This document shows, in pieces, positions 831 through 46,000 of a stretch of DNA of 64,000 nucleotides. Each line of letters starts with the position of its first letter. Within the stretch, counting starts at the first letter, position 1. Source of the stretch: an uncultured Methanosarcinales archaeon (lineage in GTDB: Archaea; Nanobdellota; Nanobdellia; Woesearchaeales; JAHJBD01); NCBI GenBank assembly GCA_964534665.1, contig CAZHRT010000004.1, forward strand, positions 10,956 through 74,955, given 5' to 3'. The position numbers and the translations under genes are program-made. The notes under the pieces were generated by a model. The model did not search any database, had not been told where the DNA came from, and worked only from the letters and a program-made list of their open reading frames with translations.

Positions 831-2615
831 ATGAAGAAATATAATGATGCAACATTCTACAAAGAAGTAAACTATTATAAAAAAGAACTAGGGAATAAAG
901 TTAAAGACAAAGTAGTTTTTGTTGTTATAAAATTAAAAAACAAAAAAGCATTCTATAGTATTGCCCCCCTTTCAATGGCAATCCATGAACTAGATGGGGA
1001 AATGCAGGTCATTGTTGAAGATTCAGATTCAAAAGGTTATGATTTATTAAAAGAAGTTTGGCACGTTGACAGAGATTATGAAAGAAGGTTAAAAACCAAA
1101 AAAGTAGCTGCTCTTAGGGCTTTTATCAACTCTGTAAACAAAAGAACAAAAACTAAAGTATTCAAAAACATCTTCAAAAAACCTGAAATATTACTTGAAG
1201 CAAATGAAGAATCATTTAGGGGCACTTTTGATTTACATTATCAAAACAAATGGCATAAACAATACAGATGGAAAGAACTGGTCGATACTTGTAATCAAAT
1301 ACTAACACAAGGTTATGATTTAAAGAAAACTGACAAATTAAGCATAGGTTTTGTTTTAGTTCCCAAAAAAGAAAAACTTACTCTTCCACTAGAAGATTAT
1401 TTAGATTCATTTTCAATTGCATATGCAACTGCCATGGCTGCCAAAAAGAAAAAAGCAAGTGCTTCTTTAGGTTCAAGTACAAACAAATGGTCTTTATTAG
1501 CTAGGCCTGTTAGAACAGCAGACCTTGCAGCAACATTAAAAGGTTGTGAACTAGACAAAAATGTTGATGAAGAAGTTTTCAAAAAATTCAAAGAGTTTTC
1601 TAAAATTATGAAGTTAGATAGAATGAAATTTCCAACAGCTGCATTTGGTATTCATGCTAAAGGATATTTTGGAAAACATTTCTTTGGCGATCAAATAGGA
1701 TATCCCACATTAGATAAAAAAACTAGATGGAGTTCTGCTGGTCAAATGATGCTTAAAGATCCTTACTCCCCACAAACAAGACTAGAAAAACGGGACCCAA
1801 TGATGCGTTATGGTATAACAGAAACCCTGCCACTAGACATTTTCATAGAAACATGTAATATTGATTATAATATATTAAGAAAAAGAAGTGAAAAGATTAG
1901 AGATACTTTAAAGACCTGCGAAAAAATAAGGGTCATCGGAAACCACATTGATGGATATAAAACAGACTTTACAGTAAATTTATTATCCAAAAAAGGGGAA
2001 ATTAAAGACTTTATTTCTTCTGATTGTGATGTTAGAACTAAAATTGATCAAGAATTCTTTGAAAAAACTGGAATTAAAGCAGGGGCTTTTGCAAATTTTC
2101 CAAGTGGTGAAGCTTTTGTTACTCCTGGCGGAATGTCTGGCATAATGGTTGGAGACGTAGTAATCAATGTAGATTCTAGCTATAGGCTCCCAAAAGGTCA
2201 ACCAATAGTTGTAGAGTTTCATAAAAAGGGCTATAAGATAATTAAAGCACCAAAAAAAATATTTGATGTTATGAAACGTGAATTAAAAGAAGCTCGTCAA
2301 AAAATAACAGATTATGAAAAATCTAAAAGCCTTCCAAAAGAGATAGTAAATATTTACAAAGAAAATTTTAATCTGGTTGGTGAATTTGCGATCAATACAA
2401 ATCCTAAAGCAAAATTATGTGATTATTTAATTGTAAATGAAAAAATTGCTAGAATGATACATGTTGCTCTTGGATCTGGTTTTGAAGCACATAGAAAAAC
2501 ATTATATCATTGGGATATTGTAGTTGATTCACCAAGACAAAAACTAGACATATATGGAATAGATAAAAATAAAAAAATTCATTGGATAATCAAAAAAGGA
2601 GATTTTGTTATATGA
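831..2615 (+). CDS. M29 (AmpS/aminopeptidase T)-like protein with ~300-aa N-terminal extension of unknown function
   Basis: The C-terminal ~250 aa (GEAFVTPGG..., EFAINTNP, HVALGSG, HWDIV) are paralogous to the downstream M29 aminopeptidase. The N-terminal half has no recognisable family. Confidence 0.5.
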   Translation: MKKYNDATFYKEVNYYKKELGNKVKDKVVFVVIKLKNKKAFYSIAPLSMAIHELDGEMQVIVEDSDSKGYDLLKEVWHVDRDYERRLKTKKVAALRAFINSVNKRTKTKVFKNIFKKPEILLEANEESFRGTFDLHYQNKWHKQYRWKELVDTCNQILTQGYDLKKTDKLSIGFVLVPKKEKLTLPLEDYLDSFSIAYATAMAAKKKKASASLGSSTNKWSLLARPVRTADLAATLKGCELDKNVDEEVFKKFKEFSKIMKLDRMKFPTAAFGIHAKGYFGKHFFGDQIGYPTLDKKTRWSSAGQMMLKDPYSPQTRLEKRDPMMRYGITETLPLDIFIETCNIDYNILRKRSEKIRDTLKTCEKIRVIGNHIDGYKTDFTVNLLSKKGEIKDFISSDCDVRTKIDQEFFEKTGIKAGAFANFPSGEAFVTPGGMSGIMVGDVVINVDSSYRLPKGQPIVVEFHKKGYKIIKAPKKIFDVMKRELKEARQKITDYEKSKSLPKEIVNIYKENFNLVGEFAINTNPKAKLCDYLIVNEKIARMIHVALGSGFEAHRKTLYHWDIVVDSPRQKLDIYGIDKNKKIHWIIKKGDFVI

Positions 2616-3535
2616 AGTTTGCAGCAAACATACTAAAAAATAGTATGGGTCTTAAAAAAAATGAAAGTTTAGTCATAATTTATGATAAAAACAAAAAATA
2701 TATTGCTCAATCATTTCTAGATGCTGGTAAAAATATTGCTAAAGAAACTAATTTCATAAGTATGCCTGTTGCAAAAGCAAATGGGGAAGAACCACCAAAA
2801 AGAATTGCAGAAGCAATTAAACAGGGCGATGTTGCCCTTTTAATAACAACAAAATCATTATCACATACTATTGCTAGAAGAAACGCATCAAAAAGTGGTT
2901 GCAGAATTGCGAGCATGCCAGGTATCACAGAAGGTATGGCATTAAGAACACTTTCTGCTGATTATTCTGATATTAAAAAACAATGTAATAATGCTTCAAA
3001 AAAAATAACTGGAAAAAAAGTAGAATTAATAACAAAAAAAGGAACACTTTTCACAACATATACTAATAGATTATTCCAAGATACTGGAATTTATAAAAAA
3101 AAAGGTGACTTTGGAAATTTACCAGCTGGAGAAGTGGGATTTGCTCCAAAAGAAGGTAAATCAAACGGAGTAATAATCATTGATAAAAGTATGGCTGGAA
3201 TTGGTTTACTTAAAGATCCAATAAAATTAATTGTAAAAAATGGTTTTGTTACAGAGATACAAGGAAAAGAAGAAGCTAAAAAACTAAGGGCATTACTAAA
3301 GAAATTTAACAATAAAAAGGTTTACAATATTGCTGAATTTGCAATCGGATTAAACAAAAAAGCAAAAATAACAGGTAATGTATTAGAAGATGAAAAAGTT
3401 TACAATACAGTACATATTGCTATTGGAGATAACACGAGTTACCCTGGTGGCAAAACACCTGCCCCTACACACTTAGATGGGGTTATTTCAAAACCAAAGA
3501 TATATATAGATAAAAAACTTATCAAAATCAACTAA
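2612..3535 (+). CDS. Aminopeptidase, M29 (AmpS/PepS) family
   Basis: GNLPAGEV, HIAIGDN and HLDGV motifs. The start was moved to the ATG at 2612 (MKFAANILK), which has a GGAG 7 nt upstream; the track start at 2582 is less likely. Confidence 0.7.
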   Translation: MKFAANILKNSMGLKKNESLVIIYDKNKKYIAQSFLDAGKNIAKETNFISMPVAKANGEEPPKRIAEAIKQGDVALLITTKSLSHTIARRNASKSGCRIASMPGITEGMALRTLSADYSDIKKQCNNASKKITGKKVELITKKGTLFTTYTNRLFQDTGIYKKKGDFGNLPAGEVGFAPKEGKSNGVIIIDKSMAGIGLLKDPIKLIVKNGFVTEIQGKEEAKKLRALLKKFNNKKVYNIAEFAIGLNKKAKITGNVLEDEKVYNTVHIAIGDNTSYPGGKTPAPTHLDGVISKPKIYIDKKLIKIN

Positions 3536-3573: not shown

Positions 3574-4719
3574 ATGCAATCTAAAGACAAAGATATTGTT
3601 GATAGCGTTATATATTCTTACACTGCTAATAACAATAGACTTGAAGAAGAAAACAAGCTTCTAAAAGAAACAATCAACCATTTACAAAATGAGGTCCAAA
3701 AATTTAAGACCCCTCCTTTAATGGTTTGTGAAGTTAGATCAATTACAGGAGAAACCGCAATAATCAAGATTCCAAACGGAAACCAATTCTCAGTTTATAT
3801 TTCAGATCAATGTAAAAATTTAAAGTCTGGGGACGTTGTTCTTGCAGAACAAAAAAACTTAACAATCATCGATAAGATAGAAGTTACTAAAACCTTTGAT
3901 GTTGAAAGTTTTGTAATAATCGAAAAACCTAATGTTTCTTGGGCCGCTGTTGGTGGATTAAAACAACAAATAAATGAAATAAAAGAAGTAATTGAACTTC
4001 CACTTAAGAAACCTAAACTATTCAAAGAATTAGGTATTAAACCGCCAAAAGGAATTTTACTTTATGGTCCGCCAGGAACAGGAAAAACTTTAATGGCAAA
4101 GGCTGTTGCAGCTTCAACAAACTCCACATTTATTGAAATTGTTGGTTCAGAACTTGTTCAAAAATTTATTGGTGAAGGTGCAAAACTTGTTAAAGAAATT
4201 TTTGAATTAGCACGAAAAAAAGCGCCAGCAGTAATATTTATTGATGAAATCGATGCATTAGCAGGAACAAGAATGGAAGTTGGAACTTCTGGCGAAAGAG
4301 AAGTAAACAGAACATTTATGCAATTGCTTGCAGAAGTTGATGGTTTTGCCCCATTAGATAATGTTAAACTTATCGGTGCAACAAATAGAAAAGATGTTCT
4401 TGATCCGGCAATATTAAGACCAGGTAGATTAGATAGATTAATTTACGTTCCAGTACCAAAAAAAGAATCAAGAATAGAGATATTTAAAATACATTCTAAA
4501 AGAATGCCATTAGATAATGATGTTGTTATAGATTCATTAGTTGAAAAAATGGATGGTTTCTCAGGAGCTGAAATCAATGCGGTCTGTACAGAAGCAGGAT
4601 ATTTTGCAATCCGTGAAAACAGAAAAAAAGTACATAAAAAAGATTTTATAAATGCTATACATAAAGTTGCCCAAAGCGAAAAATTAGAAGGTCAAGATTA
4701 CATGAACATGTTTGGCTAA
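3574..4719 (+). CDS. pan: Proteasome-activating nucleotidase (AAA+ ATPase)
   Basis: N-terminal coiled coil, OB domain, Walker A GPPGTGKT, Walker B IIFIDEIDA, second region of homology, C-terminal hydrophobic-Tyr-X-like tail. A TTTATATT box sits ~20 nt upstream of the ATG. Confidence 0.9.
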   Translation: MQSKDKDIVDSVIYSYTANNNRLEEENKLLKETINHLQNEVQKFKTPPLMVCEVRSITGETAIIKIPNGNQFSVYISDQCKNLKSGDVVLAEQKNLTIIDKIEVTKTFDVESFVIIEKPNVSWAAVGGLKQQINEIKEVIELPLKKPKLFKELGIKPPKGILLYGPPGTGKTLMAKAVAASTNSTFIEIVGSELVQKFIGEGAKLVKEIFELARKKAPAVIFIDEIDALAGTRMEVGTSGEREVNRTFMQLLAEVDGFAPLDNVKLIGATNRKDVLDPAILRPGRLDRLIYVPVPKKESRIEIFKIHSKRMPLDNDVVIDSLVEKMDGFSGAEINAVCTEAGYFAIRENRKKVHKKDFINAIHKVAQSEKLEGQDYMNMFG

Positions 4720-14475: not shown

Positions 14476-15465
14476 ATGGACATTCACCGGGGTATTTTAG
14501 ATTTTATTCGTATTAAAGGGCCTAGTTTACCTACCCAAATTGCCAAACATATTGGAAAAGATTCATTAATGGCTTCTGTGTATTTATCAGAACTAGCTTC
14601 AACTAAGAAGATATTAATCTCTTGGTTAAAAGTTGGTGCATCCCCACTATATTATTTACCTGGTCAACAAAATAAATTACAAAATTTCTCTTCTAAGCTA
14701 AATGAAAAAGATTTAGAAGCATATAATTTGCTTAAAGAAAAAAAAATTATACAAGAAAAGGAATTAAGTCCCTTGTATAGGGTCGCTATGAAGAATCTAA
14801 AAGATTTTGCAGAACCATTAAACGTTACTTTCAATGGTGGAACAGAGATCTTTTGGAAATGGTCACTTTTGTCTGAACAAGAAACAAAAGAAACAATACA
14901 AAGCATTGTAAATCCTATAAAAGAATTACCAAAAGAAACTAAAAAAGAAGAAACAAAAATAGAAGATAATAATGTTCAAGAAAAGGGTGCAGAAGAAAAG
15001 AAAATAGATAAGCCTATTGAAGAAAAAATAATCCCAAAAAAAGAAATTCTCAACAATAAAACTGAAATCAATAAAGAAACGCCCATTAAATCAAAAGAAA
15101 TAGAAGAAGTTCAACAAAAAATAATTAAAACCGAGAAAAAAGAAAAGAAAAACATAGAATCAGATTTCCTCAATCAAATTGAAGATTATTTCGCATCAAA
15201 TGGTATTAAAATTATTGAAAAAAATATAATCAGAAAAACTGAATTAGATTTCTTGTTGAGTGTACCTAGTTCGGTGGGTAATTTAACTTATTATTGTAAG
15301 GCTAAATCAAAGATAAAAATTAATGATGGCGATCTAAGTTCGGCTTTTATCCAGGCACAATCAAAAAAATTGCCTTGTTTTTTTGTTACAAAAGGGGATT
15401 TGACTAAAAAAGCTCAAGAAATGCTTGAACAAGAATTTCCTGGAATGCATATAAAAAAAATATAA
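14476..15465 (+). CDS. Hypothetical protein: N-terminal winged helix, K/E-rich low-complexity linker, C-terminal restriction-endonuclease-like (PD-(D/E)xK-like) module
   Basis: wH-like N-terminus (ILDFIRIKGPSLPTQIAKHIG), (KE)n linker, C-terminal E..D...YYCKAK block. Confidence 0.4.
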   Translation: MDIHRGILDFIRIKGPSLPTQIAKHIGKDSLMASVYLSELASTKKILISWLKVGASPLYYLPGQQNKLQNFSSKLNEKDLEAYNLLKEKKIIQEKELSPLYRVAMKNLKDFAEPLNVTFNGGTEIFWKWSLLSEQETKETIQSIVNPIKELPKETKKEETKIEDNNVQEKGAEEKKIDKPIEEKIIPKKEILNNKTEINKETPIKSKEIEEVQQKIIKTEKKEKKNIESDFLNQIEDYFASNGIKIIEKNIIRKTELDFLLSVPSSVGNLTYYCKAKSKIKINDGDLSSAFIQAQSKKLPCFFVTKGDLTKKAQEMLEQEFPGMHIKKI

Positions 15466-16512: not shown

Positions 16513-17337
16513 ATGAAGCTAAAAGAATTATTATCTAAAAAATTAACAAAAAAACAATTAAAAATGTTACCTACTTCTTTTGATGTGGTGGGAGATATTC
16601 TAATTTTTAACCAGTTCCCAGAAGAACTTGAAAAAAAAGAAAAAATTATTGGAGATATAATATTAAAAGAACATAAAAATGTTAAAATAATATGCAAAAA
16701 GACAAAAAAACATTCGGGGATATATAGATTACCTAAATTAAAAATTATTGCAGGGCAAAGAAGAAAAGAAACAGAACATAAAGAAAATAATGTTAGATTA
16801 AAACTTAATGTAGAAAAAGTATATTTCTCAGCGAGATCTTCAACAGAAAGAAAACGAATTTATGAACAAGTTAAAGATGGTGAAGATGTTTTAGTTATGT
16901 TTTCAGGTTGTGGCCCATTTACAATTGAAATTGCCAGAAATTCTAATCCCAAAAAAGTTTCTGCTGTTGAAATAAATCCTATTGCACACGAATATGCTGT
17001 AGAAAATATTAAATTAAACAAAGTTCAAGATAAAGTTAATTTACTCTTTGGTGATGTTAATGATATCTTACCAAAACTTAAAAAAAAGTTTGACCGAATC
17101 TTAATGCCTTTGCCAATGTGGGGAGAAGCTTTTCTTGAATTAGCAATCAGTAAAGTAAAGAAAAAAGGAATAGTGCATTTCTATGATTTTGGTGAAGATA
17201 CTTTCCAAACTGCAAAAATTAAAGTTAAAGAAGCATGTAAACAAACAAAAAAGAAATGTAAAATATTAAACGCAGTAAAATGTGGGCAATTTTCCCCTAA
17301 AGTGTTTAGAATATGTATCGATTTCAGAGTAGAATAG
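16513..17337 (+). CDS. trm5: tRNA (m1G37) methyltransferase Trm5 / Taw2-type class I SAM-dependent methyltransferase
   Basis: Met-10+ like domain, SAM-binding VMFSGCGPFTIE, NLPK-like catalytic loop. Confidence 0.75.
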   Translation: MKLKELLSKKLTKKQLKMLPTSFDVVGDILIFNQFPEELEKKEKIIGDIILKEHKNVKIICKKTKKHSGIYRLPKLKIIAGQRRKETEHKENNVRLKLNVEKVYFSARSSTERKRIYEQVKDGEDVLVMFSGCGPFTIEIARNSNPKKVSAVEINPIAHEYAVENIKLNKVQDKVNLLFGDVNDILPKLKKKFDRILMPLPMWGEAFLELAISKVKKKGIVHFYDFGEDTFQTAKIKVKEACKQTKKKCKILNAVKCGQFSPKVFRICIDFRVE

Positions 17338-17382
17338 TTCTTAATTTTTATTTATAAATATAATAAACAAATATTTTATTGA

Positions 17383-17498
17383 TACTTACAATGTAAGTAA
17401 TATTGGAAGAGTATACTTACAATGTAAGTAAACAAAAGACAAATATACTTACAATGTAAGTAAAACCACAACCTGAAGGAATACTTACAATGTAAGTA
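17383..17498. repeat. Array of four identical 17-bp perfect palindromes TACTTACA-A-TGTAAGTA (at 17383-17399, 17414-17430, 17446-17462, 17482-17498). Each is embedded in aTACTTACAATGTAAGTAa, and the unique spacers are 14, 15 and 19 bp
   Basis: Read directly in the sequence. Lies between the convergent 3' ends of trm5 (+) and polD large subunit (-). Confidence 0.9.
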
Positions 17499-17543
17499 AA
17501 AACAATACAAACGTTTTTAAGTTAAGAATCAATTATATACTAT

Positions 17544-17610
17544 GCACGCGATGATTAAGTGAACACCAGTGCCCTCTGTGGCAGACGGAAGTAACTGCTG
17601 AGCGTGCACT
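17544..17610 (+). ncRNA. Candidate small structured RNA (C/D-box sRNA-like): terminal stem GCACGC/GCGTGC, near-consensus C box ATGATTA, D box CTGA, followed by a T-run
   Basis: A ~65-nt island of >55% GC in ~25% GC intergenic DNA. The 6-bp terminal helix brackets a RUGAUGA-like box and a CUGA box immediately inside the 3' stem. Internal C'/D' boxes are degenerate. Strand is inferred from box orientation. Confidence 0.3.
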
Positions 17611-17638
17611 TTTCTAAAAAATCAAATAAACTTAAGAA

Positions 17639-20600
17639 TTAAAACCACTTTCCTAAACCTTCTTGTTTTTCTTTTTCCTTACCAAAAACCCCTTCAGCCC
17701 TTCTTTGTGTAAGTTCAAGTGTTTGTTTAAGATATGCTGGGAGGTTGTATTTTTCAGCAAGCGAAACAGCCGGCCCTAAATACTTAACAATAGACCCTTC
17801 AGAAATAGTAAACAATATCTTACCGTCGCACTTAGTACATTTACCAATTAATGGCGGTCTACGGAATTTTTCATTGCATTGTACACACCTAAACTGTTGC
17901 ATAGAAAACTTTCTAAGATTCCCTTTCATATCAGGTAAAAAATGCCGTTCAATAACTAATCTTGCTACATCTGCTTCGTCAACTGCCCGAATTAATTCAG
18001 CTAATTCCATTTGCCCATAAAGTTTTTCTTGCATAGAAGGTAATGTTTTGTATGCTGAACATCTAACCCCTGCATTAATGTCCTCAGTATCATGAGTAAA
18101 ACCGTAGCCATAATATTGTCTAGGTGTATTAAGATAATTTATTGCTTGATCAATCTTAACATCCCAGGGTGGCTTAAACTCTTCACCTGCTTGATATAAT
18201 TCTAAAGGGTATTTTGAAACAATATCTAGATCAAAAAACATGTCATCTACCTCGGAAGGTATCAATTTATATGTTAAAACCAGGGGCGCATCTTGTGTTG
18301 ATCCCCTAGAACTAGGTAAATATTGCCTAGAAAAATTTAACAAACAATCTAACAATAAAGAAACGCTTGCCTCATCCCCATCACAATCTCTCCTTGTAGC
18401 TGCATGAAGCATAGGGTGGGCAAAAAACCCCTGTGTTTTTGAAAAACCCACTATTCTTCCAACAATTCCTGCTGAAGTATGTGGTGCCAAAGCAACAACT
18501 AACTGCCCGGCTAAATCATCGCGTGTTTGAATATTATAATTAGATTGTAAACCATATAATCTTGTCAAAAGCTCATCAACAAATCCTGCAGTCTTCTCTA
18601 AAATAACATCTGCCCCAAGATCAGGAGATTCTATACATGCAGGTAAAATAATATCTTGGGGTTTAAGTTCTAAAATCTGATTTTCTTCTTTGAGTTCCTT
18701 CCCCTTAATATCAACATCATACCCCAATTTAATTAATTTTAATATTGAAGTCCCCACTTCTTTTGGTTTAAAATGGGTGAGGGGTAACTGAGTCATATCA
18801 TACCTTGTAGTCCCGTCTTTATTTACATTAATCTCATATTTTGCCCTAAGTATCCCTTTGCCCAAATGTTCTGTTATGTGATTTCTATTGGCTGTTCCTT
18901 TAACACCTTTTATCAAATCTGGAAATACTCTAAGCTTTAATTTTTTAAGTACATGCCCAAACATTGTGTTAATGTCTAATCCTTTTCTTTCATAACTTCT
19001 AGCTTTTCCGTGTTGGCACTCTTCTTTGTCTATCTTACCACAAGTAGAGCATATAAAAAGCTGTTTTGTTTTTACATCACAAACTTCACAAACACTAAAT
19101 GGTGTTTCATTTCCACATTTCTCACATTTAAATATTGGAAAATCTGAATTGATTCGTTTTTTTAATAGTGCGCTTTGAAAACACTTCATTTTGCCGCCTT
19201 CTTCGCCAACTGGGAAAAGTACATGTGGTGCACCAGTCAATTTCCTCATTTTTGCTTTTTCTGGGCGGCCCATTCTCGCCCCAACAAAAACCCCTACCTT
19301 ATCTTTTATTTTTACATCAGAACATTCATTTATTAAATCTAAAACTTGTTTTTCTTCGTTAGTGGGTTCCATAATCTTTTCCTTAAAAGCTTCGGTAAAT
19401 ATATTATCAAGAATTAAAGCATCTTCTTTTCCAACCACTACAAACTCCTTATTTGCAACTATATGTGGTACGCCTAAAATTTCTAACACCCTTTTTGGTT
19501 CATCATCCAAAGGCAAAATGAGTTTATTTTCTTTGTGTGTTCCTTTTTCAATCCAATCAAAAAGTATACCTAATTGCTTAAGAGATATTGTTTTCCAATA
19601 ATAGGTATATTTGGGGTGTAAAGGGACACCATATTTTTTTGATAAGTTCAATGATTCTAATGCGTTTGGCCTAATTTTATGTGGCTCTTTCAAAAAATCT
19701 ATATTTTCGCCCTTAGATTTTTGTTCCAGTTCTAACGCCCATATATCTTCACAGTACCCTGCAGGAACTAAAGGGTGTGCACGATTAAAAAAGTCCCCAT
19801 AATTAAACAAAATATCGCCCAAAAACAATATTTCTTTGACCTGGCTTGATACTTCCTTGGCTTTAACCACCGAATCAACATAAACAACAGAACCATCATT
19901 TAATTTAACTATTGGTCCATCAATAGTATCACAAGTTGTCATAGATGCAGCTTTTCCTGGGCGTTCTAATTTAAGTTGTGTCCCAACACCAATAAACTTC
20001 TTTAAAATATGTGTTGTTGCTGGGTGTATTGCCGAAGCAGAGTATCCAGTTGTTCTTGCCCTGCCATATCTTAATCTAAACCCACCAACTGCCAAAGGGT
20101 GTGTTAAAACCGGCCTACCTGCGACCATATCTTTAATAAAAGTATAATTTGGGGTTAGCCCTTCACCTTTTTTTTCCTCTACCCCTTTAGATTTTGCAGA
20201 TTTCTGAATTTTCAAAAATTCTTTAATAAAATCCCATTGCCCCATATCAAAATCCTGCCCCCATTCGTCGAGTTGTTTCCACATTTTTGGTGCTTTCTGA
20301 CTTAAACATTCCCCCATAACCAAACAAAAACCATTCCTAATCCTATTAGTTTCTATACGAGGAATGTCTTTATAATTTGATACTTCAATTTTTTCTGATG
20401 GGTCACCATCAATTTGGACAGGAAGATTCTTAGCCATAAAAGCTAATTCTTCTTCACTAGGCAAATATTGTAAATTAGTTATTCTATCATGGTAATCATA
20501 AAGTTCTGCAACCGTTCTTTTAACTTCTTTGTCTGTTGGATCATAAACATCATATCCAAACTTTTTTCTAATATAATCTGCTATTAATACTGAAACAGAT

Positions 20601-21085
20601 GCCCCGGTTCCACCGGCACTCCTAATTGGTCCAGAATAAAGTAAGGCAAAATATTCTTTACCGTCTGCCCGCTTTCTGATGCTTAGCCCGGCAAACCCTT
20701 CCAAAGGAGAAGCAACAGTTCCTAATGTAATATAAGCAAAACCAATTCTAATTCCTATTTCCATTGCTTCTTTTTTATCTTTAAATTTACAATATTTTTC
20801 ATTTGCAATCTCTTCTGCAATAATAAATGCCACCCTCCAATCTAAAGACCCATACTCTTTTTCAAGTTCTTGAATTCTTTCTGGTATTGATGTTCCAACA
20901 ATTTGTGGAGCAATAGTAGAAATCAAACCAACAACTCTTTCTGCCATATTTTTTGCTTTAGGAATTTCAGTATTTGGGGCTGGATCATAACCTTTAGCCC
21001 TTGCCTTTTCAGCCAAAACATATAATTCATTAACTTGTTTTTCAATATCCAAAAAATAATTGTCCATATTACTCATTTCCACCAA
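17639..21085 (-). CDS. polC: DNA polymerase II (PolD) large subunit DP2
   Basis: 1148 aa with a conserved DP2 N-terminus (MDNYF...AKGYDP) and C-terminal zinc-binding Cys clusters. Confidence 0.95.
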   Translation of the reverse strand: MVEMSNMDNYFLDIEKQVNELYVLAEKARAKGYDPAPNTEIPKAKNMAERVVGLISTIAPQIVGTSIPERIQELEKEYGSLDWRVAFIIAEEIANEKYCKFKDKKEAMEIGIRIGFAYITLGTVASPLEGFAGLSIRKRADGKEYFALLYSGPIRSAGGTGASVSVLIADYIRKKFGYDVYDPTDKEVKRTVAELYDYHDRITNLQYLPSEEELAFMAKNLPVQIDGDPSEKIEVSNYKDIPRIETNRIRNGFCLVMGECLSQKAPKMWKQLDEWGQDFDMGQWDFIKEFLKIQKSAKSKGVEEKKGEGLTPNYTFIKDMVAGRPVLTHPLAVGGFRLRYGRARTTGYSASAIHPATTHILKKFIGVGTQLKLERPGKAASMTTCDTIDGPIVKLNDGSVVYVDSVVKAKEVSSQVKEILFLGDILFNYGDFFNRAHPLVPAGYCEDIWALELEQKSKGENIDFLKEPHKIRPNALESLNLSKKYGVPLHPKYTYYWKTISLKQLGILFDWIEKGTHKENKLILPLDDEPKRVLEILGVPHIVANKEFVVVGKEDALILDNIFTEAFKEKIMEPTNEEKQVLDLINECSDVKIKDKVGVFVGARMGRPEKAKMRKLTGAPHVLFPVGEEGGKMKCFQSALLKKRINSDFPIFKCEKCGNETPFSVCEVCDVKTKQLFICSTCGKIDKEECQHGKARSYERKGLDINTMFGHVLKKLKLRVFPDLIKGVKGTANRNHITEHLGKGILRAKYEINVNKDGTTRYDMTQLPLTHFKPKEVGTSILKLIKLGYDVDIKGKELKEENQILELKPQDIILPACIESPDLGADVILEKTAGFVDELLTRLYGLQSNYNIQTRDDLAGQLVVALAPHTSAGIVGRIVGFSKTQGFFAHPMLHAATRRDCDGDEASVSLLLDCLLNFSRQYLPSSRGSTQDAPLVLTYKLIPSEVDDMFFDLDIVSKYPLELYQAGEEFKPPWDVKIDQAINYLNTPRQYYGYGFTHDTEDINAGVRCSAYKTLPSMQEKLYGQMELAELIRAVDEADVARLVIERHFLPDMKGNLRKFSMQQFRCVQCNEKFRRPPLIGKCTKCDGKILFTISEGSIVKYLGPAVSLAEKYNLPAYLKQTLELTQRRAEGVFGKEKEKQEGLGKWF

Positions 21086-22610
21086 ACCTTAATATTTTAA
21101 CCTTCCTTGTTTTTAGATTAACTATCGGCACCCTACTTGGTTCAGGGTTGTGTCCAACTTTTTCTTGAAAATCAGTTTTACTTTGCCAGCAAGAACCAGA
21201 AATCAATGTAACGTTCCTATAATTTGCAGCAATAGATTTGTGAATGTGCCCAGTAACAAAAATGTCTGGAATATCATTAATCACTAATGCGTCTTCATTT
21301 TGGGGCAAGTATAATGTTGAAGTGTGGGTTGGGGCCAAATGCCTTCTTTTTAACAAAAACTTCATTATTAAGTCTCCACGATCATAGCCGCCCTTATTTC
21401 TTATTGAATCAACATTGGCAACAAAATAATCAAACGAATAACCATGATACATCAAAACATCAAAACCTGAAAAATTTTCAGATGCATGAATATTAATCAT
21501 TGCCGGATTAGAAACCATTGTAACATTAGGTAAGTCATATAACTGACCCGCAAAATCTTTATACAATGGTGGTTGTGGTTCTGCAATTCGCATAGCATCG
21601 TGATTGCCTGGACAAACAATTATCTCAACATGTCCGGGTATTTTTTTTAATAACCTGGCACATTCATTATATTGTTCATTAATATCTTTAATAGATAATT
21701 CTTCATCCTGTCCAGGATAAATCCCGCACCCATCAACCAAATCACCAACAATAAATGCGTATTTAATCTTGGATGCCACGGCTTTTTGTGTATCATTCCC
21801 CACTTCCCCGTTCATCCAACTTAAAAATTTATCAAAATCTTTAGGTAAAAAATTAGTAGAACCAATATGTAAATCTGAAAGAAAAACTGCATAAACTTCC
21901 TCATCTATTTTTTTAAGTTCTTTTGTTAAAGGAACTTCTGGCCATAGCACAGTATTAGCAAAAATAATATTATCCCCACTTACACCATTAACAGCAATAA
22001 CCTCATCCAACACAATATCTTTTGCTTCATTAAAAAGTTCAGGTTTGTTCTTATTGACTAATACATTTGTTGTTCCTGTTGGATCTTCAACAACAATCAT
22101 AAGGTTACCATTCTTTGTTGTACGTTTTTCAGAAACCATCGCAATTAAAGATACATTATCCCTGTCTTTTTTATTTTTCAATCTACTTATACTTGTTAAA
22201 TTGGATATTTCCATCCTCTTTGATAAGAGTTTTTCCATTGAAGCATACCTTGCATTAAATAAATCAACAAAATCTTTTAATTTTCTTTTTTTTGGTTCTA
22301 AATTATAAGAAAATTTTACATTAACTTGTGAATTAGATTTAACTTCTTTTTTTTGAACATAAGAAGTATAATCTTTTTCCCCTCCTTCTTTTTCTAAAAT
22401 TGACTTTGATTTATCAATTTCCTTCCATTCTAGGTTTTGTCCAATAAGCTGTTCTGCATCTTTCCCATACACCAATAATTCTTCATCAGATAAATTTTTA
22501 ATTTGGTCCAAAGAAACATTTTCCAATTTTTCAAGTAATTCAGGGCTAACTAAAACATCTTTCTCCATAAGATAAGAAACTATTTCCTTTTTCTCCATTT
22601 TAAAAAGCAA
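21069..22610 (-). CDS. polB: DNA polymerase II (PolD) small subunit DP1 (Mre11-like calcineurin phosphoesterase fold)
   Basis: VFLSDLHIGS, GDLVDG, GNHD and GHIH phosphoesterase motifs, plus an N-terminal OB. Alternative start at 22598 (MEKKE). Overlaps the DP2 start by 17 nt. Confidence 0.9.
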   Translation of the reverse strand: MLFKMEKKEIVSYLMEKDVLVSPELLEKLENVSLDQIKNLSDEELLVYGKDAEQLIGQNLEWKEIDKSKSILEKEGGEKDYTSYVQKKEVKSNSQVNVKFSYNLEPKKRKLKDFVDLFNARYASMEKLLSKRMEISNLTSISRLKNKKDRDNVSLIAMVSEKRTTKNGNLMIVVEDPTGTTNVLVNKNKPELFNEAKDIVLDEVIAVNGVSGDNIIFANTVLWPEVPLTKELKKIDEEVYAVFLSDLHIGSTNFLPKDFDKFLSWMNGEVGNDTQKAVASKIKYAFIVGDLVDGCGIYPGQDEELSIKDINEQYNECARLLKKIPGHVEIIVCPGNHDAMRIAEPQPPLYKDFAGQLYDLPNVTMVSNPAMINIHASENFSGFDVLMYHGYSFDYFVANVDSIRNKGGYDRGDLIMKFLLKRRHLAPTHTSTLYLPQNEDALVINDIPDIFVTGHIHKSIAANYRNVTLISGSCWQSKTDFQEKVGHNPEPSRVPIVNLKTRKVKILRFGGNE

Positions 22611-23811
22611 TCCCTAAACTATCATTCAATATATTAATTACCTTTTCAAGTGTATCTTTAGGGATCATAATTGTAATTTCTCTTGATCTCCCATATCTAC
22701 CTTTAGAAAGCACCCTTGAATTAATTATTCCCAACATATCAAGTTCTGCAATTATATCTGAAACCCTTCTTTGGGTAAGCATACTCAACCCAATTTTTGG
22801 GCATAATTTTTGATATAATTCATAAACTTCCCCAGTAAAAATTCCTTCTTTTTTCTCGTCTTGAATTTTAATAATTGAAAATAATACTACTTGGGACTGT
22901 TTTGGTTGGTTGGTTATTAGGTCCAATATTCTATCATACTCAATTTTTTGTTCTGCATGGTCAATATTTTCTATTTTAACTACTTTTTGACAATTTCTCT
23001 CTGCAACTTCCGCTGCAACACGTAAAAGTTCTATTGCCCTTCTTGCATCCCCGTGCTCCCTTGCAGCATATGCTGCACATTTTTCAATAACTCCTGTAGA
23101 TAATGCACTTGTACTAAAAGCTAAATCAGACCTTTGTTGAAGTATTTCTTTAATTTGTATTGCATTATAGGGTGGAAAAACAACTTCTTCTTCTGATAAT
23201 GAAGACCTTACTCTTGGATCTAATGTGTCTATAAAAAATAAATCATTAGAAATTCCAATAAAAGACACCCTTGCATTATTAAGTTCTTCATTCATTCTAG
23301 TAATATTATATAATAATTCATCACCAATTTTAGATACTAATTGATCTATTTCATCTAAAGCTACAACAATAATTTGTTTTTCTTTATCTATCACATCAAA
23401 AAATTTTTTATATACTTCTTCTGTTGGTAGCCCTGTGTAAGGCACCTCAACACCTAAATTCCTAAGTAATTGTGCAACAAGCCTATATTCTGTATCTGCA
23501 ACCCTTTTAAGTTTACAATTAAGATATATCGTTTTTAGTTTAATTCCTTTTTCTTTAGCATAATTTGCCAATTGATTAATTGTATGCTTAACAACTAATG
23601 TTTTACCTGTTCCAGTTTTACCAAATATAAAAAGATTAGATGGTTTATCAGATCTTAAAGAAGGTGCAAGTACATTAGCAACTTTTTTTAATTCATTTTC
23701 CCTATGATTAATTGTTTCAGGACAATATCCTGATTGTAGTAAGGCCCTATCTTTAAATAAAGGTTCTTTTTTAAGATAATCATCAAAAAAATTATTCAAT
23801 CCTCCATCCAT
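22600..23811 (-). CDS. cdc6: Orc1/Cdc6 replication initiator
   Basis: N-terminus MDGGLNNFFDDYLKKEPLFKDRALLQSGYCPETINHRE matches the canonical Orc1 start, followed by Walker A GKTGTGKT and a C-terminal wH. The track start at 23835 uses TTG with an 8-aa extension; the ATG at 23811 is preferred. Confidence 0.9.
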   Translation of the reverse strand: MDGGLNNFFDDYLKKEPLFKDRALLQSGYCPETINHRENELKKVANVLAPSLRSDKPSNLFIFGKTGTGKTLVVKHTINQLANYAKEKGIKLKTIYLNCKLKRVADTEYRLVAQLLRNLGVEVPYTGLPTEEVYKKFFDVIDKEKQIIVVALDEIDQLVSKIGDELLYNITRMNEELNNARVSFIGISNDLFFIDTLDPRVRSSLSEEEVVFPPYNAIQIKEILQQRSDLAFSTSALSTGVIEKCAAYAAREHGDARRAIELLRVAAEVAERNCQKVVKIENIDHAEQKIEYDRILDLITNQPKQSQVVLFSIIKIQDEKKEGIFTGEVYELYQKLCPKIGLSMLTQRRVSDIIAELDMLGIINSRVLSKGRYGRSREITIMIPKDTLEKVINILNDSLGIAF

Positions 23812-23835
23812 ACTATTTCTTGAACAAGAAAACAA

Positions 23836-24128
23836 TATATAAACTTTGTGTCATCACCCCTTGGTTTCTACTGGAAAAGTTTTTTAAATGTTTTTGCTTC
23901 TTTCTTTCTTTCTTTCTTTTCTATATAGAAAATAATAATAATAATAATAATAATAAACATAAAAACACATAATATAATATATATAATATAATATATATTT
24001 TTAATAAAAAAACAAATATGAACAAAAAATAGATTATAAATCTCCATAGGAAACCAAGGGGTCACACAGAAAATGTTACTTCTTAGTTACTATAAAGTTT
24101 AATATGCTTATTAATTAAAAAGCCATAT
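23836..24128. other. oriC: Chromosomal replication origin (oriC): two inverted ORB elements flanking an AT-rich DUE that contains (TCTT)5, (AAT)8 and ATATAAT repeats. ORB-A is at 23847-23876 on the minus strand (TCCAGTAGAAACCAAGGGGTGATGACACA) and ORB-B at 24043-24069 on the plus strand (TCCATAGGAAACCAAGGGGTCACACAG)
   Basis: Both boxes share TCCAnnnGAAACCAAGGGGT, which matches the archaeal ORB core (dyad plus G-string). They are in inverted orientation ~165 bp apart, enclosing sequence that is almost pure A/T. The origin is immediately upstream of orc1/cdc6. Confidence 0.8.
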
Positions 24129-34978: not shown

Positions 34979-35071
34979 TACACCTCTTATTCAGCCATAC
35001 TAATAACTCTTATTTATTTATTTCGGTTTTAGTAAGTTTTATATACTATTTACACAAGAAAATGTTATAGG

Positions 35072-38000
35072 GTGGATGATTTAAATATGTTTAAGAGTAA
35101 AATACTACTCATTTTAATATTGGCTCTTGCCGCATATAGTGTATCTGCTGCAGAATGTAGCGAATGTGGCGCACACACCACAGCATGTGATTGCCCTTCT
35201 TTTTGTGAAAATTCTGGAGATACTAGCGGTACTTGTGGAGATATTATACGTTGTCAACCAGTTGCAGGAAGAACAATATCTGAATGTAGTTCTTTTACAG
35301 ATGGTGCAGTATGTACATCATCACCTGGCTGTTCATTTTGTTCAGGGAGCGGTACTTGTTCATCTTTAACTAGTGCAGGCAAAAATACTTGTAAAAAACA
35401 GCCAGATTGTAGTTGGGACGAAACAGATGTTGACCCAGTCAACCATTTTTGTACTGGTAGTGCAAAATCTTGCTTTGATATAGGTTTGGATCCAAGTTGT
35501 ATAGCTGGCGATTTTTGTGAATCAGATTGTAATTCAGCAGCATTATGTAGTTGGGACACATGTGACGGTGCAGTTGAATCTTGTCAAAGTAGAACATCTG
35601 AAATCGAATGTCAAATTACGGGTAGCAATTGTTTTTGGATTGGCGATAATATTGATCAGGACCAAGATATTTACACCAAAAACGATATTTGTCGAACAGG
35701 AGAAACGCTTCAAATGGATTTTTGGTTATTAGATGTTGCCGATAGGGATGGCATTTGTCCACCAACAGATTGTATTGATGAACCAGGTGATTGTGCAGGT
35801 GCAGGTTACACTGGCGAGGCACTTACATGGTGTCAAAATAATCCTTATTTGATACATCCTGGCGTTTTTGATTTTCCAAACGATGGCATTGACCAGGACT
35901 GTAATGGTGCAGATTCAACAAAAGCAATAGATTGCGATTCATCCCTTTCAGCATGTGTTTATATTCACAAATTTGATAATGATGTTTTATCAGAACACCC
36001 AGTAGATTTTTATCCTTGTTATTTACAAGATCCAACTTGTAAAAAATGTGATCGTGATTATGGTTTAACAGACCCTTGTGTCAGAACATGTTCTGGGACA
36101 GATTGTTGGAAACTAGGAAAATATAAAACTATTATAAAAAGACATTCCAAAGAAGAATTCGAGTATTCTTTTGATTTTGATAATTTAGGTGAAACTAAAT
36201 GTAATAATGCAGACTGGTATGGCTCAGATGGTGTTTGGCGTGATGCTGGTTGGTTAGGTGCTGGCGGAGATTTAAATTGTTGTGGAGATGATAGGCCCTG
36301 GGTTTATGAAGGAATAGCCTTTAGACTTTATGAAACTGCAGCAGCATCCAGAGAATCTGTTTTTAGAGTTTTTAATGACGATCTACAAGATTCTTTTTTC
36401 TTAGGCCAAAGCTCACAAGCAAATTTGGTTAATTTGGAAGCTAAGGGGTATTCATGGGAAACTTTTTTGTATGCTCCACCTTCAACAGGAACTACTGGAG
36501 ATGAAGTGTGGGCACTATATAATCCATTAAACGGCGATAGGATCTTTACTACAGATACTAATGAAAAAAATACCCTTGTAGGTGCTGGCATAGCTGCTGA
36601 CTGGCACCCAACTCAAACATTTAGGGCACTTGGTCCAACAGAATCTCCCTCTACAACTATTGCAGTACACCGTTTTTATAATCCTGATAAAGGTATTCAT
36701 TACTTTACAAAAGACGAAAGTGAAATTGTTACATTAACAGATGGTCCAGAAATTTTTACTTGCGGCTCTGACATATTTACAGCATGTGTTGATTCAAATA
36801 TTGTCAAAGATGCAGATGAAGACGAAAATGTTTGTATAGGCTGTGGCCATTATCCATTAGATGGAAATTTAGGGGGTTTAGCTTGGAATGAGGAATTAGA
36901 TTCAAATAATTGTTGCGGTAACGAAGAAACTGATTGCGGCATATCTGATGGGCCAAACCTTTGCTATATGGATGATACCTCTTCAAGATGGATTGCAGGT
37001 ACACAAGGCGAAGAAAATAGTGTGGGTACCGTAATTAATATGCCTTGTGATGATTCTGATTATACATTATTACCTAACCTAGAATGGGTTCCATGCAAAG
37101 AAAATAGTTTTATGGCCCCTTTTTCACCAACAAAATTAAGGTTCCTGATTGGAGACGTTCTACACGAATATCTTTGTAAAGATAGTGAAATTCTTGCTTG
37201 TTGTGGTCCAGATAACACAAATGAAGATTGTCTTGTTCCATTAAGCAATGCTCGAACTACAACAGATGGCCCTGTAACAATTGGCACAGATACTTTTTAT
37301 TGTACTTCTTCATTTACATGGACAACTCAACCAGATGTAGATGAAGCCTCTTGTATTGCTTCAACAAATCCTGTTACTAGCACAAATAATGTTTGGACAG
37401 GCACAAAATGTTGTGGTGATGATGGTCTTGATGATGATTACTCAGACCATTTAGGGATTGGTGCTTGTTTAAATGGTGCAGTAATACCTAATGGTGATAA
37501 AGCAGCTAATGATCTGATTGTTGAAAATGGATTATTATATGGTTGTGTTGTAGATACTTCAGATTTTCCAGATATGTCAGAAGATATCATAACTCCTTCT
37601 GATCGTTGTGAGATAATTTCCAATAATTTCTGTTCATATTCTGGGGATTGGAGCACAGAAATTTCAACCAGGGATAATCCTACTTATCGTAATAGGACAG
37701 CAACTAAGCATGAATCAATTTCTGGTGGCACAACGAGTGCTTGTTGTGAAGTTAGCGAATGTTGGGATAGTAGAACTTGCGTTTCACATGGCACAATTAT
37801 CAACCAAAATTATGCCTGTATTAATGGTGATTGGGAAGACAGAGAACTTCGTTGGAAATGGGACTTCAGTGAAAACGGTTATTGTTTAAGTAATGATCAG
37901 TGCCTTGTAGAAGATCTTGCAAGTGCAACCGACAAATGCATTGATTCAGGAGAATACATATTTGACCATTATTGTGAAGAAGGGAACTGGACATCTAGAA

Positions 38001-42936: not shown

Positions 42937-43080
42937 ATGAAAGAACGTATCACAATTACCTTAGATAAAGAACTTCTAGACTGGTTAGATAAAAAAATCG
43001 ACGATAAAGTATTTGCAAATCGTTCTCATGGCTTTGAGTTCTTATTAAAAAGGAAAATGGAGGACGAAAATGAAAGTTAA
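42937..43080 (+). CDS. Ribbon-helix-helix (CopG/Arc/MetJ-type) DNA-binding protein, 47 aa; below the ORF-track cutoff
   Basis: MKERITITLDKELLDWLDKKIDDKVFANRSHGFEFLLKRK is a beta-strand/helix/helix pattern typical of RHH. Purine-rich stretch AAAAAGGGG 6 nt upstream. The 3' end overlaps the ATG of the 2567-aa gene by 11 nt. Confidence 0.6.
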   Translation: MKERITITLDKELLDWLDKKIDDKVFANRSHGFEFLLKRKMEDENES

Positions 43081-46000
43081 ATTGTTCATATTCCTTGGTT
43101 TATTATTAGTACTATCTAGTTTCGTAGTTGCACAAGTACCCACCTTAGGTTATTGTCTAAATCCTGCAATTAATGGACAAAATCCTGAAGGCAGATACTT
43201 AAATTTAGAAGAACACTTTTGTAAAATTGATGCAGTTACAGTTGAAGAATGTTGTTCACCCACATTTATCTTATATGGGCAACCCGGTTTTCCTACTGAT
43301 GTAACTGATTGTGAGGATAATTATTTTGATACAGTTTTAGCTGATTTACCAGATGATATTGAAGCTAATTGTGATCTTGGCTGTTGTTTTGAACCAGGAA
43401 ATCAAGACCCACCTTTTTGCACTGAAAGAAAACAAGGTATATGTCAAGCTTTAGATCCAGGTAATGAATTTATGACTGGTTTTGGACCAGCAGAAGTCGG
43501 TATCGGTGACGCGTGCTATAAAAAAGATCCAACAACAAACATTGTAACTGCCTTTGATAATAAATGTAGTTATGCAGGTGCTGAATCATGTTCAGATTAT
43601 ACTAATGATGGTAAAACAGTATGTAGACAATCAAGATGTAATTGGTGTGATGTAACAAATAGTTGCGGTTCAACTTGTTCAGACTGTCTTGACAAACCAC
43701 TTAGTGACGATTTTCTTTGCACTGAATCACAAATCACATGTAGGGAATCAGAACTAAATAATCAACCAGCATGTACAGCTGCAGATTGTAAATGGTCTGT
43801 AAATAATTGCGATAAATCTTGTCGTCCAGGCTATACTGATCCAGATAATAACGGGGAATGTGACTTGTCTATTGATTGTAGAACTTTTGATGATGACGAA
43901 CAAACTTGTTTAGATGCAACCACTATTTCAGGTACTAACGCAGGTTGTTTATGGACCATAACTGGAACAGACTCAGGAAGCTGCAGTTTTGAATGTTTAT
44001 CAACCCAATATGTAGACGATGGGAATAGGGTATGTGAAGAATCAAACCTTTGTACTGATGGGGGATTTGTTTGTGCTGATGCTTGCCTTACTGTATCTGG
44101 ACATCAAGCGACTTTAGACTCTCAATGTACAACTACAGGATATGAATGTTGCGAAGAAGCTTCACCTCTCCCGCAAGGCTGTTGTGAATTTAGTTGGCAA
44201 TGTAGCGCAGATATTAATGGAGGCACAAGAATATTAAAAGATTTTAATAGTTGTCATTACGATTCAACAGACGAAGACACAGTATGGCCATGCACCCAAG
44301 AATGTTTCCAAGAATCATGTGCAAATGATTTTCCAATAAATAGCCCAAACAATGAACGTGCATTATCTGCTGGACAAACACATTGTTGGTGCGGTACTCA
44401 AGCAGTACCATTATCATCTACAGATTATTGTTGTGATGGATCAACACAATCTGAACAATGTGGCGAACGAGGTTCTGTTCGAGGAACAGTAATCAATGCA
44501 ACAGGCGATTTAGAAGAAAATGTTAATATTCTTATATTAAATACAAATAATCAAAAAGTTGGCGAAACAATAACTGATGCATCTGGAAATTTCTTTGTTG
44601 AAGGCCTACCTTATAGTTCTAATGTTGAATACATTATTTTAGCAACAAAAGGTCAATACCAAGATCTTAGACACCCGGTAATATTTACAGTAATAGATAT
44701 GACTAACATTGAACTTACCCTTATTTTAAAAGATGTTGGTGATTGTTATTCACAAAACCCACCAGCACCAAACAATTTTGATAGTTCCCCTATAAAGGGT
44801 GAGAAAAAAGTTAAACTCACATGGGATTATAATTATAATCCAGAATTTGCTGATTGTGCTGGACTGATTAATGCAATCTTTTTATACAAACAAGTTGGTG
44901 ACGGATTTGAATATATTATTCTTCCTCCTGAAACAACAGAATATATTGATGATGGGCGACACTTTGGTGAACTAAATTGGGGCAGTCTTAATGAGGAAGG
45001 CGAACCAGAATATTTTCATCAAACTTATGATTATCAGATTAAAGCACATTACATCACAGGGGTTATGAGTTCAGAAGAAACATCTCATTTTGAAATGGGT
45101 GATGAAATCTGTGAAAACATTTATGCAGATGAAGAGTTTTGTTGTTATGGTAGTGACCAATATTGTATACCAGATGGTCAAGAAACACGAATGAGGCGTA
45201 ATTGTGATGAAAACAATAAAATCTCAGCAGATGTTAATGCATTAACCCATATACAGAACATTGATGGGACAGATGTAACTTCTTCTTGTCCTCCAACCTA
45301 TCAATGTAATGGCCCAAATACTCTTGGTGAAACAAATTGTTTTAAAGATGTTAACTGTGAAGCTTTAGGCAACCCATTTGGTGTGTATTATGATCAATTA
45401 TCTTGTTATGGTATAGCTAACATATTTGAAAAACCATTTAACTATTGTTATTACGATGAAAGCTTAACAACAATAGATTCATGTCAATCTTGTACTTCAA
45501 CAACTTCTTGTTTTGATTATAAATCTGAATCAGCATGTGTTGCAGATTCGTGTGATGCAAGCGGATCTTATTTAGGCCCAGGAAATTGCCAATGGCAATC
45601 AACTTTTGATTCATTAGGCGAAGGATTTTGTTATGATGAAGATTATCAAGGAACAGATTATTGTAGTTTATGTACTGATACAGGCACAATTTTCAATAAT
45701 AATGATTGCAGCCAAAATGTTTGTTCAAAGTTAGGTAGTTGTCATGCAACTGAATTTAATTCTTGTAGTGCATGTCCAGAACAACCAGACTGTGAAATCT
45801 TTGAAACATCAACAGCATGTGAAAATGCAAATGGTCTGGATCAATCATTTGAAACAGATAATGGAGATTATTCAACATGTTATATTGATGTTGATCAAAC
45901 CAAACCAATACCTACTAATCTCATAGCGAGCGACGATGCATGCAATGTTGGCAAGTGTCAGTGGGATACGAATAACGGAGAATGTATAAAAGATTCTGAT

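Follow-up and report, generated by a model that had tools for sequence, protein, structure and literature searches.

Palindromic sites upstream of a new box C/D-type small RNA gene in a DPANN archaeon: probable operators of a lineage-specific transcription factor

The stretch of DNA analyzed in this study (hereafter the window; 64 kb) contains four exact copies of the 17-bp palindrome TACTTACAATGTAAGTA at 17383-17399, 17414-17430, 17446-17462 and 17482-17498 (sites 1 to 4, assigned to neither strand). The identity of the copies reaches out to the 19-mer ATACTTACAATGTAAGTAA, the first copy of which is located at 17382-17400, and the array spans 17382-17499. The palindrome consists of two perfect 8-bp arms (TACTTACA and TGTAAGTA) around one unpaired central A. 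Since it is odd-centred, the reverse strand matches with one mismatch. The start-to-start spacing in the array is 31, 32 and 36 bp, and the spacers of 12, 13 and 17 nt are unrelated in sequence to each other. Upstream of the array lies the trm5 gene (16513..17337, + strand), a context gene outside the element, which was assigned by a match to TRM5/TYW2 methyltransferases (E=9e-50). On its other side lies the gene of the PolD large subunit DP2 (17639..21085, - strand), which is the last gene of a cdc6-DP1-DP2 operon. These observations bear out an earlier note on this DNA, which had described four identical 17-bp palindromes, phased at 31-36 bp and surrounded by unique DNA, between trm5 and polD.

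At up to three mismatches the window holds nine matches to the palindrome, as against 0.6 expected by chance, and none of 100 shuffles reached nine. No further copy was found at up to two mismatches elsewhere in the 64 kb, nor in the adjacent 9 kb on the left. Over the spacer, six contigs of this organism have the identical sequence and are hence uninformative. The four sites differ in their surroundings. Site 1 alone is directly preceded on the + strand by a TATA-like A/T stretch, aaacaaATATTTTATtga; the stretch is weak and lies 3 nt upstream of the site. Sites 2 and 3 are without a TATA-like hexamer on both sides. From the end of site 4 it is 15 nt to the TATA box and 45 nt to the 5' end of the small RNA gene described below, with which the DP2 gene is convergent. 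The array starts 46 nt past the stop codon of trm5, and a T5 run is found at 17345-17349 in between. An A6 run at 17616-21, that is, T6 on the - strand, is likely to be the terminator of polD.

The earlier note had also pointed to a GC-rich element 45 nt downstream of the array. This element is real, and it corresponds to a previously unannotated box C/D-type small RNA (sRNA) gene at 17544..17608 on the + strand, as indicated by covariation of its stem, its boxes and its homologues. A terminal stem of 6 bp is formed by 17544-17549 and 17602-17607. The stem is followed by the C box AUGAUUA (17551-17557; bulge GAU and GA), which departs from the consensus RUGAUGA at position 6, and by a conserved guide-like stretch, AGUGAACACCAG (17558-17569). 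A weak C' box, GGCAGA (17580-17585), a second conserved guide-like stretch, CGGAAGUAACUG (17586-17597), and the D box CUGA (17598-17601) complete the gene. The complement of CGGAAGUAACUG is 5'-CAGUUACUUCCG, and that of the guide-like stretch AGUGAACACC is 5'-GGUGUUCACU. The gene appears to have its own transcription signals. A putative BRE/TATA, aacgTTTTTAAG, is located at 17510..17521 (TATA 17514-17521), 22 nt before the first base of the stem; the TATA box of archaeal promoters is centred about -26. Archaeal transcription terminates at oligo-T, and the TTTT run directly after the stem (17610..17613) is likely to be the terminator of the sRNA.

A search of the fetched DNA with the sRNA element returned, besides self-matches, one match in L117 (loci compared in this study are labeled Lnnn, e.g., L039, L117 and L205). 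A covariance model built from the window and L117 then identified a third copy in L039 (E = 6e-7) and a fourth in L205/L206, and these four sequences form the comparison set. The terminal stem is 100% paired in all four, with double changes in five of the six pairs, which none of 500 shuffles reached; no slid register of the stem matches the observed pairing and covariation. Across the homologues the stem abuts a 3-nt bulge (GAU/AAU) and GA on the 5' side and CUGA/CCGA/UUGA on the 3' side. Stem, bulge and boxes thus make up what is, by its sequence, a C/D k-turn, with the C and D boxes joined by the terminal stem. An alternative register of the C box, GCGAUGA without a bulge, was excluded because the register stem-GAU-GA is set by the covarying stem. 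The homologues retain the distance of 12 nt before D and after C, and GUGAACACC and (G)AGUAACUG are conserved at this guide distance. An 8-bp A/T box precedes the first base of the stem by 22 nt in the window, L039 and L205, and by 21 nt in L117.

Archaeal box C/D sRNAs guide 2'-O-methylation together with L7Ae, Nop5 and fibrillarin. The element resembles them in its length (about 65 nt), in the stem followed by the GAU bulge and GA, in CUGA, in the 12-nt guide spacing and in having its own TATA box and T-run. The C' box is also recognizable in two homologues (UGAUGA in L039 and UGAUUA in L117). It differs from them in that C' and D' are degenerate in the window copy, D' (CUGA) being found among the homologues in L205 only, and in that no meaningful Rfam family matched it, either at the gathering score over the whole window or at E<=10 over 17300-17700. 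The 64 kb as a whole gave no tRNA gene with ARAGORN and no Rfam family at the gathering score. Judged by the shared stem and boxes, the element is a real gene and represents a new box C/D sRNA family in these genomes.

The relation between the array and the sRNA gene was analyzed on the basis of the related loci. The closest relatives found are L205 and L206, which have the same endA-X-fen1 ... trm5 order and in which protein X is 58% identical. Three exact sites are located there 32 nt after trm5, with spacers that differ from those of the window and a spacing of 44 and 37 bp. A LAGLIDADG-like gene of 338 aa (9453-10469 in L205; 4977-5993 in L206) lies between this array and the sRNA homologue. 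Since no other locus contains it, a mobile insertion is probable. As it intervenes, the array of L205/L206 is nearest the promoter of the LAGLIDADG-like gene; the sRNA promoter sits within the 3' end of the same gene. In L039 the sRNA gene is found in a different neighbourhood, upstream of PAN, and the motif again precedes it, at 50 nt (45 nt in the window). The gap from site to TATA is 20 nt in L039 and the distance from TATA to sRNA is 22 nt as in the window, and a second site serves a divergent TATA. No motif was found upstream of the sRNA homologue in L117. The array thus stands directly before the sRNA gene in two lineages, and a third has the orthologous array with the LAGLIDADG-like gene in between. 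The repeated order of motif and sRNA in L039 lends comparative support to the earlier suggestion that the array serves the element downstream.

Several other features of the window were noticed. A likely oriC is located at 23836-24128, in the part of the window with the lowest GC content, directly upstream of cdc6 (22600-23835, - strand) and its operon. An ORB-like inverted pair, CCCCTTGGTTTC with a G-string (23857-23868 on the + strand and 24050-24061 on the - strand), flanks about 180 bp of (TTTC)n/(AAT)n/(AT)n. Protein X is a hypothetical protein encoded at 14476-15465 (+) in the endA-X-fen1 operon. It has 520 homologues, the named ones of which are almost all from Woese-/Nanoarchaeota, and no Pfam match. 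In its AF2 model (pLDDT 84), tandem winged helices and a disordered linker are combined with a C-terminal domain that is similar to the endonuclease domain of MspJI. A 17-mer pair occurs upstream of X in four other genomes. The identity of X was considered as a clue to the regulon, and its tandem winged helix and MspJI-like nuclease domain clarified nothing. Three giant ORFs on the + strand (35036-40984, 43049-50770 and 50656-end) encode 1983, 2574 and at least 4448 aa, and the first two have hydrophobic N-termini that look like signal peptides. Giant ORFs (1946-3774 aa) directly follow the HTH gene described below in other genomes, and the motif is found there before large surface proteins.

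The distribution of the palindrome was analyzed by a scan with TACTTACANTGTAAGTA of one genome per prokaryotic species, which gave at least 118 loci. Among the 118 loci listed, 59 are archaeal, and nearly all of these are labeled as Woese-/Nanoarchaeota or carry genes found only in DPANN. The labels are Woesearchaeota, Nanoarchaeota or 'archaeon' in 41 cases and 'uncultured Methanosarcinales' in 17; one further locus is a probable chance match. The 'Methanosarcinales' label is doubtful, because several of the 17 carry the HTH gene and protein X as in the DPANN-labeled loci. Since genomes of Woesearchaeota and Nanoarchaeota make up a tiny share of the collection, their enrichment is large. The GC content of the archaeal loci listed lies between 27 and 69%. 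Clusters are the usual arrangement of the motif in them, with two to eight sites (at up to two mismatches) 30-80 bp apart, and about 60 archaeal loci listed hold 88 exact sites and 33 variant sites within arrays. The 17-mer is invariant across a phylum-level group, and this dyad site is kept across species while its flanks diverge, as is found in operators or UAS arrays of transcription factors. The DP2 genes of related organisms served as a control. In 80 control loci from metagenomes (about 560 kb; DP2 66-76% identical), neither a site within 4 kb nor an sRNA homologue after DP2 was found. The order trm5/array/sRNA/polD is accordingly lineage-specific. The earlier note had further proposed that a spacing close to three helical turns places the bound dimers on one face of the DNA. 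This does not hold in general, since the common spacings across arrays are 36-37 and 42-46 bp and the phasing to 10.5 bp is weak (R=0.245).

Other occurrences of the 17-mer are worth describing. In bacterial loci its centre is mostly C/G, and it is apparently the operator of two unrelated systems. In one, which occurs in Actinomycetota, Leptospira, Sericytochromatia and others, a TetR-like gene (e.g., L004, L026, L100, L113 and L025) and an NAD(P)-binding/oxidoreductase gene are divergent; the other involves an AbrB/MazE-type antitoxin gene in Chloroflexota (e.g., L037, L042, L094 and L106). The truD gene holds an exact 17-mer at the same place (about aa 208-230) in L041, L050, L063, L068, L073, L086 and L105. 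It is read as YLQCKY in six of these seven genomes, and in L050 it is read in another frame, with two copies 36 bp apart. The constraint within truD seems to act on DNA rather than on protein. L032 has a five-copy array with a 73-bp period and, beside it (4060-4575), a second family of repeats of about 100 bp (..agctgttctaggcaaac..ccccttctttttatttt..). A single site is located 700-900 nt upstream of dnaG in L033, L047 and L059, and no ORF of at least 70 aa lies between site and gene.

A small gene of one family, encoding a sigma-70-region-4-like HTH protein, adjoins the sites in 28 of the 59 archaeal loci listed. Neither the 80 control DP2 loci nor the bacterial loci listed contained a member of this family. 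Members were likewise absent from the 64-kb window and from the 9 kb to its left. The proteins are either single-domain (60-70 aa) or carry the domain duplicated in tandem (about 125-158 aa), and they share the signature IPxxIFxDRxLSVLEAIVEYLKExxxLSYHEIAxLLNRDDRTIWTVYxRxKKKR. A profile search gave at least 1832 homologues, for which Pfam matches to Sigma70_r4_2 have been precomputed; the best name among them is 'sigma-70 region 4 domain-containing protein [Nanoarchaeota archaeon]'. Our own Pfam and NCBIfam scans of the HTH protein gave sub-threshold HTH/sigma matches only, and sequence searches against the PDB and NCBIfam gave weak sigma-factor matches only. In the AF2 model of a tandem member (pLDDT 88, pTM 0.79), each half superposes on region 4 of ECF sigma factors with an rmsd of 1.8-2.4 Å over about 53 columns. 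The value for 3vfz is 1.8 Å over 53 columns, and 2h27, in which region 4 is bound to -35 DNA, was also matched. In a reverse test, four HTH loci were picked by protein similarity alone. Two of the four have TATA-and-site arrays upstream, and one of these, L210, has four exact sites with a 47-bp period and a TATA box before each. In the other two the gene lies within an operon, with no site within 2 kb. As only half of these loci have arrays, the link between the HTH gene and the motif, as read from gene neighbourhoods, is strong but not universal. We found no publication on the motif or the HTH family in literature searches by sequence and by topic.

Most sites occupy a fixed position relative to core promoter elements. 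When oriented to the HTH gene, they are mostly preceded by a BRE/TATA-like element, gaaaAcaTTTATATA, ending a few bases upstream. A TATA-like hexamer is located within 22 nt upstream in 42 of the 60 HTH-adjacent sites, most often at 3-7 nt, as compared with 22 of 60 on the other side. At the sRNA gene the site lies before the TATA box, at a distance of 15 nt in the window (site 4) and 20 nt in L039. Two to four complete units of promoter and operator are stacked before the HTH gene in L097, L116, L040 and L210. The site thereby fills the gap between TATA and start at the HTH gene, and its occupancy should therefore block the polymerase (autorepression). The archaeal repressors MDR1, LrpA and Phr act from this position between TATA and start. 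Arrays of a second class have no TATA themselves and are located before another promoter. In L046, L084, L103 and L117, two sites precede the TATA of the X-fen1 operon by 50-90 nt. Sites of the second class also precede RFC-L, a tRNA-Cys/GCD14 pair and large secreted proteins. It should be noted that ARAGORN (bacterial mode) and the Rfam tRNA model missed the intron-containing tRNA beside the array of L040, which was read by eye.

The earlier note had considered both a site for a dimeric DNA-binding protein and an RNA hairpin formed by the inner arms. The variant sites distinguish between them. Twenty-four of the 33 break a would-be pair, eight leave only a G-T and one is compensated, and half-site positions 6 and 7 never vary in the variant sites of the arrays listed. 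Since the variants break the palindrome instead of compensating it, the selected unit would be a site in duplex DNA for a protein and not an RNA hairpin. Recognition of duplex DNA by a protein is accordingly the favored reading of these sequences, and the idea of selection on a dimeric protein site gains from the invariance of the 17-mer, from the adjacent HTH gene and from the retention of the array after trm5. It is very unlikely that the palindromes act as RNA, forming hairpins or long duplexes of sites 1+2 and 3+4 for processing or protein binding, possibly in a leader of the sRNA. The TATA-like stretch before site 1 could mark the start of a transcript within the array, and the single-strand fold of the region is strong (-36.6 kcal/mol, z = -7.9). 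Such a fold, however, follows trivially from repeated palindromes, which fold automatically, and what is kept is the sequence and not the pairing. Moreover, the site lies upstream of the predicted start at most promoters and would therefore not be transcribed, and in each of the four homologues the sRNA is preceded, at the canonical distance, by a TATA of its own. An intrinsic terminator was rejected together with the hairpin, as no T-run follows the copies in the window. The suggestion of a bidirectional termination signal is not supported either, because separate oligo-T runs are present for trm5, polD and the sRNA.

A related possibility is that the array, bound by the same kind of protein, is a roadblock or insulator that stops read-through from trm5 into the sRNA and antisense to polD, and the reverse. 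The location of the array between convergent units, 46 nt after the trm5 stop in the window and 32 nt in L205, would fit, and the copies within truD suggest that some sites act on elongating polymerase. However, such a role is not needed, because the oligo-T runs of the three units are sufficient for archaeal termination, and the arrays of L039 and of X-fen1 sit in ordinary upstream regions and not between convergent genes. We therefore regard a roadblock as unlikely. It is quite unlikely that the array is a chromosome landmark near the origin, namely a loading site or a centromere-like (parS-like) site to which the HTH protein binds. The array is 6.4 kb from the likely oriC within a dense cluster of replication genes, arrays elsewhere adjoin X-fen1, RFC-L and MCM/TBP and lie near dnaG, and arrays upstream of the gene of their own binder resemble the centromere/operator repeats of plasmids. 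Against this, the majority of sites are part of individual promoters, at a constant distance from TATA, sites also precede genes of surface proteins and tRNAs, and no partition ATPase gene was seen beside the arrays. Neighbours of the replication type are expected by chance, because DPANN genomes are rich in information-processing genes. Finally, identical short palindromes with unique spacers look like a miniature CRISPR, and an AT-rich stretch is located before site 1; we nevertheless consider another class of repeat (a CRISPR-like array, MITE remnants or the origin itself) extremely unlikely. The repeats of 17-19 bp and spacers of 12-17 bp are far below CRISPR sizes (about 24-47 bp and 26-72 bp, with cas genes or a leader), and no cas genes are found among the annotated neighbours. 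The copy number of one cluster in about 73 kb, and none in the 80 related loci (about 560 kb), disposes of a MITE or a generic dispersed repeat, which the earlier note had allowed for. As for the origin, the 17-mer is unlike ORB, and directly upstream of cdc6, at 23.85-24.07 kb, there is another element, an ORB-like inverted pair that flanks an AT-rich unwinding region.

The reading that we consider reasonably probable, on the sequence evidence, is that the palindromes are duplex-DNA sites for a DPANN-specific transcription factor, likely the sigma-70-region-4-like HTH protein, acting at the sRNA promoter. The single-domain form of the protein would bind the 17-mer as a dimer, and the tandem form would bind it as a built-in pseudo-dimer with one HTH per 8-bp arm. 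Repression at the protein's own gene would result from occupation of the site between TATA and start. The sites in the window are without a promoter of their own and lie 15-130 nt upstream of the putative BRE/TATA of the sRNA. A factor bound just upstream of BRE/TATA would modulate the recruitment of TBP/TFB/RNAP at this promoter and thereby set its output, by either activation or repression. The sRNA would then be the regulated target at this locus, and the HTH gene would be located in the genome beyond the region covered here. A TrmB-family regulator may be an alternative binder of the sites. A TrmB-family regulator gene with an ORF of 66-68 aa is found in the window at about 11.5-12.5 kb (L211 20649-21697) and in L205 at 2117-3128, and the pair is syntenic, about 5 kb from the array, in the window and L205.

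The proposed factor can be compared with known regulators. TrmBL1/Tgr, which recognizes the TGM palindrome in Thermococcales, and SurR are archaeal regulators whose effect depends on the position of the site relative to BRE/TATA. As in these systems, a palindromic site is found here in several promoters, either downstream of TATA (the HTH gene, where repression is expected) or upstream of BRE/TATA (the sRNA and X-fen1). TrmBL1, however, has a TrmB winged helix and another motif, whereas the HTH here is sigma-region-4-like, and the TGM regulon is not known to have the arrays of two to eight sites and the tandem units of promoter and operator that are seen in the present sequences. MDR1, LrpA and Phr are similar in that the site overlaps about -20 to the start of the regulator's own promoter; they belong to other protein families, and here up to four units of promoter and operator are stacked (L097 and L210). 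Ptr2 of Methanocaldococcus jannaschii binds palindromic pairs just upstream of BRE/TATA, a position like that of sites 1-4. It is of the Lrp family, and activation has been shown for Ptr2, while the array here is known from its sequence.

The candidate HTH domains superpose on region 4 of bacterial ECF sigma factors (2h27, 3vfz and 5fgm) and share the Pfam family Sigma70_r4_2. In contrast to ECF sigma factors, they are without sigma region 2 and are free-standing or duplicated, and archaea are without the bacterial RNA polymerase. The target also differs, being a palindrome for the HTH candidate and the -35 hexamer for region 4 of ECF sigma. ParB-parS and the centromere repeats of plasmids are likewise short palindrome arrays by the gene of an HTH binder, and the array here is close to oriC; in the present case, however, no ParA-like partner was seen, and most sites are embedded in promoters and spread over unrelated ones. 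We know of no dedicated transcription-factor array described upstream of a box C/D sRNA gene.

A wider interpretation, in which the 17-mer and the HTH protein form a DPANN-wide global system, is improbable on present sequences. In one variant, the sites may be ParB/parS-like and organize the chromosome near oriC and the replication genes. In the other, the system may be a master switch that couples RNA modification to the giant surface proteins thought to mediate attachment to the host. The RNA-modification set might then comprise the box C/D sRNA, the sites within truD, trm5, the GCD14-type methyltransferase and tRNA genes. The recurrent links of the motif to these gene classes may fit such a programme, and they may equally fit chance neighbourhoods in small genomes.

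Almost nothing is known about gene regulation in the mostly uncultured DPANN archaea. The transcription-factor reading of the palindromes offers a testable pair, namely a 17-bp operator without variation across Woese-/Nanoarchaeota and, as the candidate regulator, a free-standing sigma-region-4-like HTH protein that has over 1800 homologues. This pair could be tested with recombinant protein and synthetic DNA, without culturing. The system is unusual in its invariance at the phylum level, in the stacked units of promoter and operator, in the frame-independent copies within truD and in its guide-RNA target. The outline of a regulon that emerges would include the HTH gene itself with its stacked promoter-operator units, the box C/D guide RNA, the X-fen1 operon, large surface proteins and the truD sites. 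If this reading is true, a guide-RNA gene would be under the control of a dedicated transcription factor in these archaea.
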